From positions 129,449 through 193,448 of the forward strand of contig CP065013.1 in NCBI GenBank assembly GCA_016700315.1: DNA of 64,000 nt, given 5' to 3'. Within the stretch, counting starts at the first letter, position 1, and the number at the start of each line of letters is the position of its first letter. Of this stretch, positions 41,741-44,902 are shown one piece after another. The position numbers and the translations under genes are program-made. The notes under the pieces were generated by a model. The model worked only from the letters and a program-made list of their open reading frames with translations. It made no database searches and had not been told where the DNA came from. The DNA is from Candidatus Saccharimonadota bacterium (lineage in GTDB: Bacteria; Patescibacteriota; Saccharimonadia; Saccharimonadales; SZUA-47).

Positions 41741-44700
41741 CTAGGCCTTAACTAGCTGCATCTTAAGTTTTAACCCGTCAATATTCACATCTGTCAATTG
41801 CGATGCATCACTCGCGCTATATTCAACCGACTCTGCTAAAGTCTCATTTTTAATGGCAGCTTCGTGCTCTTTAATAGCCAGCAGAAGCTGCTCAGAGTCA
41901 GTAGCAAGGCTTAAACGTATACGATCATCAACATTTAGCCCAGCTTCTTTTCGAGCATTCTGAACAAAACGAATAACCTCACGCACTAAGCCTTCTCGTT
42001 TCAGCTCGGGCGTAAGGGATTTCTTAATCGTAAGACTGCTACCCTCAAAAGCCATACTCACCAGTCCTGGCTCGCCACCCTTTGCACCGTAACCCGCAGC
42101 CACCGGGGTATTAACTACTTCTTTCACATTGACTTCTTCAGCAATAACTTGCTCGTAAAAATCACCGAGTTTTTCGCTAGGATAAGCAACCAATTGTAGC
42201 GGTTGCCGAACTTTTATTGAACCAAAATCGTCTTGCTGCATTCGCAGCGACAATCCCTTTTCAATAATCGATCTAGTTCGCAGCATATCTGTAATTACTT
42301 CTTCGTCTATTTTGCCCAAAGCCGGCCAATCTTGTAGGTGGACTGATTCGCTTAAGCCAGTCATTTTACTATATAATTCCTCAGCCATGAATGGCACAAA
42401 AGGCGCTAAGATAACGCTAAGCCTAGTTAGTACATAGTGCAGAGTTTTATAGGCATCAGCCTTATCGCCGTCGTCTTCGCTTTTCCAAAATCGGCGGCGA
42501 CTGCGGCGAACATACCAATTGCTGGCGTCGTCGATGAATGGTAGGATTGGACTCATCGCATCTGGAAGATTGTAATTGTCCATATATTCTTTGACCTCTG
42601 CCTGCAATTGATGCAGCCTAGAAACTACCCAGATATCTAAAGGGTTATTAAGCGACTCTGATGGGTCGGATGTGTATCCGTCCCACTCCCATTCATCAAC
42701 TTCAGCGTACATGGTAAAGAAGTCGTACATATTCCAAATCATACTTAGCTTTCTAGCTACGTCTCCGACTTCTTTATCCTGCAGAGCGAAGTCCTCACCT
42801 GAAAGCAGGGGCGAACTAGCTAGCAGGAATCGTAGCGAGTCGGCTGAGAATTTATCCATCAGCTCGTTAGGATCTGTATAGTTGCCATAGCTTTTGCTCA
42901 TTTTGCGGCCATCGTTGCCAGCAACATTACCGGTGACAATAACATTCTTGAAAGCGTGCGTACCAAACAACCCAACATTGACCGCATGGACGTAATAAAA
43001 CCAAGCCCTTACCTGACCGACGTACTCGACTATAAAGTCTCCGGGAAAATTCGCCTCAAATTTTTCTTTGTTCTCAAACGGATAATGGAACTGAGCGAAT
43101 GGCATGCTACCTGATTCAAACCAACAATCAATTACTTTATCAATACGGCTATATTCAACACCGTCTATTGTAAACTTTACATCGTCAACCCAGGGCCTAT
43201 GATAGTCTTCTAGTTCTACACCAGATAACTCTTTGAGCTCAGCGTAGCTACCGATGACTTTGATGTAATCATTACCACTGCTGTCTTTGCCTTTCCAGAC
43301 CGGCATTGCTGTCGCCCAGAAACGATCACGACTGAGATTCCAGTCTGGTGCTTGTTCGATTGTTTTCTGAAAACGACCGGACTTGACGTGTTCTGGAAAC
43401 CAATAAATTGGCTTATTTTGTTCGATCATCAGCTCTCTTTGTCCGGCAATATCCATGAACCAACTAGGATGGGCTCTATACATCAGCTTGGTACCACAAC
43501 GATGGCAATGAGGGTAAGAGTGACGAATGTAGTCAATTTTCCAAACGATACCTCTAGAATGTAGGTCTTTGGCTATTTGTTTGTTAATCTCCCAAACGTT
43601 TTGGCCGGCCCATTCGCCTTCAGTAAATAGGCCATTTTCATCGATTGTATGAACGATAGGAATGCCATTTGCCTTGGCAAGCACGAAATCTTCCTCGCCG
43701 TAGGCTGGTGCCAAGTGGACGATGCCTGTGCCAGCCTCAGTTTCGACATAATCAGCATGCCAGACCTTATGCGCATTCTCTCCTCGATCAACTCCCAGAA
43801 GATTCTGGTAGCTTTTGCCTAGTAGCTCCTGGCCTTTAAATTCTCTGTTTATCTGAAAGTCGAGTCGCTGGTGCTTTTCGTCCGTCAAGACTTTGTCTAC
43901 TAATTCTTTGGCGACCACAAACTCCTCTTCGCCAACTCGCACTTCAACATAGTCAAAATTCTTATTTACAGCTAGCGCCGTGTTAGCTGGGAGTGTCCAA
44001 GGAGTCGTTGTCCAGGCTAGCAGCACTCGACCGTCCTCAAGTTTAAACTTCACATAAACACTCGGATCAGTGACGTCTTGGTAAGCGCCAGCATCCATAG
44101 TAACTTCGGCTTTTGAAAGTGGCGTAGCATCTAGTGTGCAGTACATGAGAACCTTTTCACCCTCGTAGATTTTGCCCTTTTCATAAAGCTCCTTGAACGC
44201 CCACCATACAGACTCCATGTAGTCTTTGTCCATGGTCTTATATGCTCCCTTGAAGTCGACCCAACGGCCGATGCGGTCTACCACATCTTCCCATTCGCCA
44301 CTAGTCTGAACCATATTGGATCGGCAAGCTAAAATATATTTCTCAATACCATAATCAATAACCTCTTCACGGGAATTGATGCCTAGTTTTTTCTCTGTGA
44401 AACGTTCGGCTGGCAATCCGTGACAATCCCAGCCCCAAACTCGCTCCACGCGTTTACCGTTCATTGTTTGATAACGAGGTACGATGTCCTTGATGATAGA
44501 GCTCAGTAGCGTACCGTGATGCGGATTACCAGATATGAACGGTGGTCCATCATAGAATACATAGGAGTTATCGTGGCTTCGGTTTTGGACTGACTTCTCG
44601 AAAGTTTTATCATCTTTCCACTTTTGTACCCAATACTTTTCATACTCAAGTGCTCGACGTCTTGTCCCTGATTTGTATTTCAACCTTGTTATCTCCTTTA

Positions 44701-44785
44701 AAATAATAAAACCACTCGCTTTCGCTAGATCCGCGCTTGCGGAGGTACCATCTAGCTTCCAGTTGTGGCTCTTGATTACAGTCAT
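41741..44785 (-). CDS. ileS: Isoleucyl-tRNA synthetase, type 2 (eukaryote/archaea-like)
   Basis: YVFYDGPPFISGNPHHGTLLSSIIKDIVPRYQTMNGKRVERVWGWDCHGLPAE (HIGH region) and KMSKS present. The likely true start is the TTG at 44683 (MKYKSGTRRRALEYEKYW), 9 nt after AAGGAG. The upstream 34 codons of the track ORF overlap the leader RNA element. Confidence 0.9.
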   Translation of the reverse strand: MTVIKSHNWKLDGTSASADLAKASGFIILKEITRLKYKSGTRRRALEYEKYWVQKWKDDKTFEKSVQNRSHDNSYVFYDGPPFISGNPHHGTLLSSIIKDIVPRYQTMNGKRVERVWGWDCHGLPAERFTEKKLGINSREEVIDYGIEKYILACRSNMVQTSGEWEDVVDRIGRWVDFKGAYKTMDKDYMESVWWAFKELYEKGKIYEGEKVLMYCTLDATPLSKAEVTMDAGAYQDVTDPSVYVKFKLEDGRVLLAWTTTPWTLPANTALAVNKNFDYVEVRVGEEEFVVAKELVDKVLTDEKHQRLDFQINREFKGQELLGKSYQNLLGVDRGENAHKVWHADYVETEAGTGIVHLAPAYGEEDFVLAKANGIPIVHTIDENGLFTEGEWAGQNVWEINKQIAKDLHSRGIVWKIDYIRHSYPHCHRCGTKLMYRAHPSWFMDIAGQRELMIEQNKPIYWFPEHVKSGRFQKTIEQAPDWNLSRDRFWATAMPVWKGKDSSGNDYIKVIGSYAELKELSGVELEDYHRPWVDDVKFTIDGVEYSRIDKVIDCWFESGSMPFAQFHYPFENKEKFEANFPGDFIVEYVGQVRAWFYYVHAVNVGLFGTHAFKNVIVTGNVAGNDGRKMSKSYGNYTDPNELMDKFSADSLRFLLASSPLLSGEDFALQDKEVGDVARKLSMIWNMYDFFTMYAEVDEWEWDGYTSDPSESLNNPLDIWVVSRLHQLQAEVKEYMDNYNLPDAMSPILPFIDDASNWYVRRSRRRFWKSEDDGDKADAYKTLHYVLTRLSVILAPFVPFMAEELYSKMTGLSESVHLQDWPALGKIDEEVITDMLRTRSIIEKGLSLRMQQDDFGSIKVRQPLQLVAYPSEKLGDFYEQVIAEEVNVKEVVNTPVAAGYGAKGGEPGLVSMAFEGSSLTIKKSLTPELKREGLVREVIRFVQNARKEAGLNVDDRIRLSLATDSEQLLLAIKEHEAAIKNETLAESVEYSASDASQLTDVNIDGLKLKMQLVKA

Positions 44786-44902
44786 AACGCTGACTTCATA
44801 TAGCGTCGAGGTCTACTCTAGTTAAATCCTATTTCTTCTCGATGCGGTTTTCATAGCTGATAACTACTACTTCGCAACTCCCAAATTGTAAACTCATTAT
44901 AC
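44684..44902 (-). promoter_or_regulatory. ileS leader: candidate T-box riboswitch (Ile) with TATAAT -10 box at 44896-44901
   Basis: At 44724-44756 (minus) the sequence GCUAGA-UGGUACC-UCCGC-AAGC-GCGGA-UCUAGC forms helix A1, a 7-nt bulge identical to the T-box consensus UGGUACC, helix A2 and a loop. At 44841-44878 there is a short stem with an AGUA/GAA internal loop and a UUAUCAG loop (AUC then A). A U-rich tract and the SD follow downstream. Confidence 0.55.

Follow-up and report, generated by a model that had tools for sequence, protein, structure and literature searches.

The ultrashort class of T-box riboswitches, described from the ileS leaders of Mycobacterium tuberculosis, M. smegmatis and Nocardia farcinica, carries its specifier codon in the terminal loop of a short Stem I and has no platform for the elbow of the transfer RNA (tRNA), and all known members regulate ileS (bioRxiv 10.1101/2023.02.28.530422). 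In the canonical mechanism of transcriptional T-boxes, the 3′ strands of helices A1 and A2 form the terminator 5′ strand and Stem III persists in both states (PMC7583486, PMC5570125). Here we analyse the leader of ileS in a 64,000-nt stretch of a Candidatus Saccharimonadota bacterium genome (assembly GCA_016700315.1, contig CP065013.1, positions 129,449 to 193,448; hereafter the window), where an earlier, sequence-only reading had proposed a candidate isoleucine (Ile) T-box. Comparative sequence evidence indicates that this leader is very probably an Ile T-box riboswitch of the ultrashort-Stem-I type (probability about 0.95), and we favour transcription termination through a helix competing with Stem III as its output (about 0.6).

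Compared by published descriptions, the leader shares with the ultrashort ileS T-boxes the short Stem I, the AUC specifier in the terminal loop, the lack of an elbow platform, the Stem II S-turn motifs, the IIA/B pseudoknot, the purine linker, Stem III, the 7-nt UGGN bulge and the regulation of ileS. It differs in host and in expression platform. The known class occurs in Actinobacteria and is translational, with a Shine-Dalgarno (SD) sequestrator opposed to an antisequestrator, whereas this leader belongs to Saccharibacteria/Patescibacteria and has a hairpin plus U-tract and a predicted free SD. The likeness to actinobacterial short-Stem-I T-boxes drawn by the sequence-only reading holds for the architecture and the terminal-loop specifier, but does not extend to the expression platform. 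With canonical transcriptional T-boxes (RF00230; Bacillus subtilis tyrS and glyQS) the leader shares a specifier codon, the UGGN-ACC bulge, A1/A2, the order RRRxG-Stem III-AA, and a terminator state that is the more stable one and precedes a U-tract. In contrast to these, the window has no long Stem I with a distal interdigitated T-loop platform (its Stem I is 34 nt) and no K-turn/AG-bulge/distal-loop platform, the RF00230 scores are 25-49 bits against a gathering score of 93, and the exchanged strand would be that of Stem III, with A1/A2 persisting; a terminator using the A1′/A2′ strand was found in nine relatives only.

Anatomy and conservation of the ileS leader

The gene downstream is ileS, as the sequence-only reading had it. 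Its product scored 797 bits against TIGR00392 (cutoff 621) and contains the Pfam domains tRNA-synt_1, Anticodon_1 and DUF5915; its nearest solved structures are 8c8u and 1ile, and the enzyme is of type 2. The parts of the leader are listed below in window coordinates.

44905-44681, minus strand: leader of ileS, read from the sequence
44843-44876, minus strand: ultrashort Stem I, 34 nt, from the alignment to covariance model R1 and covariation
44857-44863, minus strand: specifier loop UUAUCAG, with the Ile codon AUC at 44859-44861, then A at 44858
44806-44842, minus strand: Stem II, with lower helix UCGAG/CUCGA, internal-loop motifs and a distal hairpin
44832-44837 and 44811-44818, minus strand: Stem II internal-loop motifs AAGAAA and GAGUAGAC, respectively
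44780-44805, minus strand: region holding Stem IIA, CGC (44803-44805) with GCG (44788-44790)
44791-44795 and 44780-44784, minus strand: IIB pseudoknot, AGUCA with UGACU
44769-44773, minus strand: purine string AAGAG, the RRRxG motif 5′ of Stem III
44759-44768, minus strand: Stem III, CCA-CAAC-UGG, minimal (3 bp) in the window
44724-44756, minus strand: A1 (GCUAGA/UCUAGC), bulge UGGUACC (44744-44750) and A2 (UCCGC-AAGC-GCGGA)
44693-44698, minus strand: SD AAGGAG, read from the sequence and predicted unpaired, with an in-frame UUG start at 44681-44683
41741-44683, minus strand: ileS, type-2 isoleucyl-tRNA synthetase (IleRS), 980 aa, from TIGR00392 and Pfam
44896-44901, minus strand: candidate promoter, −10-like TATAAT, read from the sequence
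44885-44890, minus strand: second −10-like hexamer, TACAAT

At the gathering score, Rfam gave no family anywhere in the 64-kb window, and the minimum free energy (MFE) of the whole leader was not unusually stable (z=-0.77); comparative evidence is therefore decisive. The lack of an RF00230 match, which the sequence-only reading had named as refuting, was half borne out: the model failed to match at the gathering score, yet it aligned with the window leader over its full length below that threshold (25.4 bits, E=7.9e-4 in a permissive 401-nt search). In this alignment AGUA/GAA, the Stem II AGUA, CGUUA and the T-box sequence were all placed, and 47 distal Stem I model positions shrank to 1 nt. 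The gathering score was likewise reached by none of the 18 relatives tested (31-49 bits). We attribute these scores to a curated model that expects a long Stem I, a limit of the model and not a structural failure.

A protein search with IleRS yielded 80 loci at 56-81% identity, almost all labelled Saccharibacteria/TM7 (single loci are cited below by L numbers). About half of them have TGGNACC ~70 nt before the ileS start, and these also have a 4-bp hairpin with the 7-nt loop NNAUCNN. Covariance model R1, built on a seed alignment of 24 relatives (A2) from which the window was excluded, matched the window leader over its full length with 90.9 bits (E~3e-21). R1 matched 72 of 81 sources (71 of the 80 Saccharibacteria-like loci and the window), once in each, and every match lay upstream of ileS on the ileS strand, so that the conservation in relatives on which the sequence-only reading depended is borne out. 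Carriers include cultivable Saccharibacteria, namely L054 (Nanosynbacter TM7-075-like) and L041 (Nanogingivalis). In eight loci with upstream sequence no element was detected even with filters off; it has been lost or lies more than 2.5 kb upstream. A second R1 match in the window (60819-60939, plus strand, 10 bits, E=0.4) opens with a Stem-I-like hairpin, GAGUGG-UGAUUAU-CCGCGAG, and was rejected as a chance match inside a peptide-deformylase-like coding sequence (EGCLS...HEIDH motifs).

All covariation counts given here are based on a model-based alignment of the 72 sequences (A3). Core pairs were paired in 93.8% of cells, compared with 68.1% after shuffling and 37-46% with slid partners, and changes on both sides were seen in 34 of 37 of them. 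In the window, Stem I is built of a lower helix (UGCG/CGCA), an upper helix (GUAG/CUAU) and a 7-nt terminal loop, and corresponds to the compact stem that the sequence-only reading had noticed upstream of the antiterminator (44876-44843, with AAGUA/GAAAAC internal loop and UUAUCAG terminal loop). The upper helix is 99.3% paired across the 72, with compensatory changes in 4/4 pairs. The proposed specifier, AUC followed by A, is well supported: the terminal loop follows NNAUCNN in 68 of 70 full-length relatives, and AUC plus a purine matches the amino acid of the regulated gene, ileS. An AUC within GCAUCGAG (44845-44838) was rejected as the specifier because Stem I meets Stem II there and both are paired. 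The internal loop below the specifier hairpin (44868-44872/44847-44852) reads AAGUA/GAAAAC, in agreement with the loop-E/S-turn consensus AGUA/GAA. At this site NNUGA/GA is found in most relatives instead, resembling tandem G-A pairs or a K-turn.

Stem II and the IIA/B pseudoknot, whose absence was named beforehand as evidence against a T-box, are present and covary. The lower helix of Stem II is 98.9% paired with covariation in 5/5 pairs, and its internal-loop motifs, AAGAA[A/C] and AGUAGA/AUUAGA, are nearly invariant in relatives; in the window AAGAAA and GAGUAGAC probably fold as an S-turn. Stem IIA is 98.6% paired. In the pseudoknot, the 3′ end of the IIA loop pairs with a segment that lies 3-5 nt downstream of it. 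The position of this pairing is constant in nearly all of 70 sequences, and the strands covary (CGCU/AGCG, CCAG/CUGG, GCCU/AGGC; window, AGUCA/UGACU), with a mean z of -1.85 relative to shuffles. Lineage-specific hairpin insertions of 30-90 nt occur in L005, L008, L014, L018, L038, L050 and L080, at sites that include distal Stem II, the Stem III loop (L038, ~70 nt) and the loop of helix A2 (L080).

The purine string and Stem III of the window read AAGAG-CCA CAAC UGG-AA, in keeping with the RRRxG-Stem III-AA arrangement defined in PMC7583486. In relatives, AAGNGC before Stem III is nearly invariant, GAA follows it in 64/72, and Stem III itself is 6-10 bp long, 92.5% paired and covarying in 6/6 pairs. 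The antiterminator fold was found exactly where it had been drawn (A1 44756-44751, bulge 44750-44744, A2 44743-44730, A1′ 44729-44724). A1 is 99.1% paired with 5/6 pairs covarying, and A2 99.0% with 4/4. The bulge UGGUACC, rightly recognised as the T-box consensus, is the same in 62 of the 72 sequences. Variants are UGGA in L003, L029 and L032 (UGGAACC), UGGC in L035 (UGGCACC), UGGUAUC in L007, L036, L044 and L067, and UGGUAAC in L037 and L041. We predict that the fourth bulge base should track the discriminator base of tRNA-Ile in each genome.

A helix competing with Stem III

Downstream of the antiterminator, the U-tract (44711-44700) and the SD AAGGAG (44698-44693) follow as the sequence-only reading described, but that reading found no clean competing terminator or sequestrator helix. 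One exists. The segment before the U-tract pairs with the Stem III region in a covarying helix that also appears in the window MFE structure. Its parts in the window, and the equivalent strands in three relatives, are as follows.

44765-44771, minus strand: 5′ strand of the proposed terminator base helix, GAGCCAC, shared in part with the purine string and with the 5′ strand of Stem III, from the window MFE and centroid structures
44709-44715, minus strand: proposed 3′ strand of the terminator base helix, GUGGUUU
44700-44711, minus strand: U-tract UUUUAUUAUUUU, directly 3′ of the helix
Window: pre-U segment GUGGUUU (44715-44709), Stem III-region partner GAGCCAC (44771-44765)
L009: pre-U segment AAAAGAAGUGA, Stem III-region partner UCACUUCUUUU
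L034: pre-U segment CCUCUGAGAUUU, Stem III-region partner AAAUCUUGGAGG
L001: pre-U segment AAGAAGUGGCU, Stem III-region partner AGCCAUUUCUU

This helix was found in ~60 of the 72 leaders, the window included, and encloses an intact A1/bulge/A2 hairpin. Complementarity in most relatives involves the Stem III loop, its 3′ strand and the linker G residues, and in the window, L001, L029, L032 and L042 the terminator 5′ strand starts within AAGNGC. Duplex energies for the Stem III region with the pre-U segment range from -8 to -20.5 kcal/mol, and z falls as low as -7.7 when compared with shuffled tails. In the window and ~60 relatives, the A1′/A2′ strand was no more complementary to the pre-U tail than shuffles were.

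The 15 pairs of the competing helix are paired in 83.1% of cells, compared with 70.2% after shuffling and 47-62% when slid. Their covariation score of 0.326 was reached by none of 500 shuffles (0.177 shuffled; at most 0.141 slid), and double changes were seen in 13/15 pairs. As an internal control, pairing in these columns is 88.5% in the 60 leaders of the Stem III type and 44.7% in nine leaders of a canonical type, whereas for Stem III itself it is 92-94% in either set. The tail copies the 5′ strand of Stem III, with the same base or purine for purine at 89.5% of positions, and triples such as AAUGAG/CUCGUU/AACGAG and UUAAGG/CCUUAA/AUUAAG change together. One strand thus covaries with two alternative partners, the signature of a switch.

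Unconstrained MFE folding of discriminator plus tail paired the tail with the region before A1 in 59/70 sequences, and A1 was fully intact in 58 of these 59. The terminator state was the more stable by a mean of 10.4 kcal/mol (window, -23.0 versus -15.8 for the antiterminator state). Immediately after the helix, 7-9 of 10 nt are T in 71/72 sequences; the remaining one, a low-scoring outlier, has 5.

The nine canonical-type leaders (L059, L060, L066, L068, L069, L070, L073, L077 and L080) form a sister clade with a canonical T-box terminator, in which A1′ UCCAAU pairs with AUUGGA across a loop and U7 follows. This clade is largely of animal-gut Saccharibacteria and has the same ultrashort T-box. 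Two terminator topologies thus coexist in one T-box family, and the textbook terminator of these nine relatives argues for transcription attenuation as the regulated step in the lineage. Ordinary hairpin-plus-U terminators are also used in this genome. An example is the strong canonical intrinsic terminator at 40967-40940 (minus strand, 11-bp stem then U8), which ends the gene cluster of ileS and a zincin-like peptidase gene.

From the conserved anatomy and what is known of the family, we propose the following switch. The anticodon GAU of tRNA-Ile would pair with AUC in the loop of the ultrashort Stem I, and the S-turn of Stem II, together with the IIA/B pseudoknot, would support this pairing. 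The (A)CCA 3′ end of an uncharged tRNA would pair with the UGGU of the A1/A2 bulge, and Stem III with its purine flanks may then dock onto the tRNA-bulge complex. Binding of uncharged tRNA would lock or hide Stem III and the linker G residues and so block the base helix, and polymerase would read into ileS. Without it, the tail would displace the 5′ strand of Stem III and close a long compound hairpin that nests the intact A1/bulge/A2 and abuts the U-tract, and transcription would terminate. The comparative data support this anatomy; the dynamics are those we infer from it.

Strand displacement of this kind resembles that in some transcriptional riboswitches for small molecules, whose terminator invades the closing helix of the aptamer. 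In both, a ligand-stabilised helix (here Stem III) is set against a terminator-completing strand that copies the displaced strand. Here, in contrast, the ligand would be a tRNA, and the exchanged helix a peripheral stacking helix that does not enclose the binding site. The proposal is consistent with work on known T-boxes: Stem III is indispensable for binding of the tRNA 3′ end (PMC7583486), a longer Stem III gives ~6-fold tighter binding (bioRxiv 10.1101/2023.02.28.530422), and with charged tRNA the linker of the M. tuberculosis ileS T-box becomes flexible and Stem III moves off the antisequestrator (PMC12647780). We would give about even odds to a hitherto undescribed Saccharibacteria T-box subclass that keeps sensing physically apart from switching, in which the A1/bulge/A2 sensor is folded in both states and Stem III either docks or is displaced by a nesting terminator strand.

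Weighing the transcriptional reading

Several points weigh against a transcriptional Ile T-box in the window. The element falls below the Rfam gathering score, and it lacks the tRNA-elbow-binding platform which, with a long Stem I, transcriptional T-boxes are argued on kinetic grounds to need (PMC7583486 section 6.2). The window is also a poor example of its own family, with the weakest base helix of the set (6-8 bp, -8.0 kcal/mol, z=-1.1) and the shortest Stem III (3 bp). At the base of A2, where a G-U pair has been described as the main steric sensor, the window has U-A; G-U occurs in only 43 of the 72, and A-U or G-C in others. The strands of the terminator helix are A/U-rich with high background pairing, and its covariation margin is therefore smaller than that of the core. 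A generic terminator scan of the leader, which allows loops of 3-8 nt only and so misses the site, reported nothing there. The only signs of a promoter are −10-like hexamers: TATAAT is present at 44901-44896, as had been claimed, and 49/72 relatives have such a hexamer 12-40 nt before the element, but a generic scan of the window leader found no good −35. A tRNA-Ile gene, for a match of UGGN with the discriminator base, was found neither in the window nor in 60 loci, and the 64-kb window contains no tRNA gene of any kind. Finally, termination by a Patescibacteria RNA polymerase at a compound hairpin of ~60-90 nt is putative.

The leader could instead be a translational T-box like the actinobacterial class, sequestering the SD when no tRNA is bound, with the U-rich tract as an AU-rich spacer or ribosome standby site. 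Every ultrashort-Stem-I T-box so far described is translational (bioRxiv 10.1101/2023.02.28.530422; PMC7583486), the CUCC in window ACCUCCGC could pair with GGAG, and a paired SD is predicted in a few relatives (L034, L045, L015). We nevertheless consider this unlikely. The SD is predicted to be unpaired in most leaders (median P 0.75, window 0.78; below 0.3 in only 6/67), and no anti-SD is conserved, most relatives having ACCGUCC or ACCGCUC instead of CUCC. It is the helix plus U-tract that is conserved and covarying, and in many loci the T-box stands 400-1700 nt upstream of ileS with a different first gene. A terminator of the Bacillus kind in the window itself, with A1′ CUAGC pairing with GCGAG across GAAA and destroying the antiterminator, can be drawn at 44728-44715 and would use the same A1′ strand as the sister clade. 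It has only 4 pairs around an A-G mismatch, however, leaves UGG between hairpin and U-tract and is not in the MFE structure, while the A1′/A2′-tail duplex (-4.4 kcal/mol) is no better than shuffles (z=+0.4). Furthermore, the closest relative, L001, has no canonical option but an 11-14 bp Stem III-region helix. We judge this terminator improbable for the window.

We also judge it improbable that the helix terminates transcription constitutively or leakily, or that it closes and stabilises the structure, in each case forming regardless of tRNA, with the window T-box a decaying remnant. The 3-bp Stem III, the weakest base helix of the set and the U-A in place of the G-U sensor pair would fit such decay. 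All other modules of the window element are intact, however, as its R1 score reflects, the Stem III strand covaries with two alternative partners as expected of a switch but not of a static helix, and a constitutive terminator before ileS would be costly because ileS is essential. A mere chance resemblance to a T-box, for which the missing Rfam match at the gathering score and the unremarkable MFE z-score might speak, has a negligible probability, refuted as it is by the match to an independently built model and by the element's conservation, with many compensatory changes, across 72 sources.

Genomic setting and significance

On the 5′ side of the leader lies a small open reading frame (ORF) of 94 aa without a Pfam match, and beyond it a class II (B12-dependent) ribonucleotide reductase (45668-48451). 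In ~25 relatives variable genes separate the T-box from ileS, which starts 400-1700 nt further on (L044, 1533-2492; L053, 1884-2504; L004, 1311-2504). They encode a 319-aa protein of unknown function, a GDSL/SGNH-type hydrolase and a CAP-domain protein, and the T-box of these relatives appears to head a small operon. L046, L051 and L075, whose records are labelled Pacebacteria, Paceibacterota and Moraniibacteriota, have divergent, low-scoring T-boxes (41-59 bits with R1, 41-46 bits with RF00230) with a more canonical bulge context, CGGUGGUACCRCGG, and hint at a wider occurrence of T-boxes in Patescibacteria.

Elsewhere in the window, positions 28560-39260 hold a tandem array with a unit of ~1311 nt (437 codons). 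It comprises at least 6 copies that are 97-100% identical at a spacing of 1310-1312 nt, with more diverged copies at 28.5-30.7 kb, and adjoins or overlaps an 866-aa ORF (38111-40711, minus strand) without a Pfam match. Tandem Repeats Finder misses the array because its period exceeds 500. Its likeliest explanation is either a giant gene for a repetitive protein or an artefact of assembly.

In searchable full text we found no paper that connects T-boxes with Saccharibacteria, Patescibacteria or the candidate phyla radiation; subscription journals are poorly covered there, and a prior description is possible. The searchable literature likewise held no description of a T-box terminator that competes with Stem III. 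We judge this T-box genuine and, as far as can be told, new to the phylum, with a variant expression platform. The Rfam threshold misses the group (0/18 tested), so standard annotation leaves these leaders unlabelled. In TBDB, the search for translational Ile T-boxes was confined to Actinobacteria, and terminators are sought only downstream of the discriminator.

Termination by a leader of this kind would contradict what the field takes as a working rule: an ultrashort Stem I means translational control, and transcriptional T-boxes need an elbow platform (PMC7583486). If true, an ultrashort Stem I without this platform can drive kinetically controlled transcription attenuation, and docking of Stem III alone can transmit the aminoacylation signal. 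This suggests a second wiring of the T-box, with Stem III as the exchanged helix, and fits the undocking of linker and Stem III by charged tRNA in single-molecule work (PMC12647780). The compact design may also be of use for engineered tRNA-responsive switches.

For the organisms themselves, the finding extends T-box riboswitches to the candidate phyla radiation, here to ultrasmall epibionts unable to make amino acids. Regulation in these epibionts was called ‘virtually unknown’ in a 2024 perspective (PMC11665869), and the element, if our reading is true, would be the first native riboswitch-type regulator described for Patescibacteria. As a conserved sensor of uncharged tRNA-Ile, it would read out directly how well the host feeds its epibiont.

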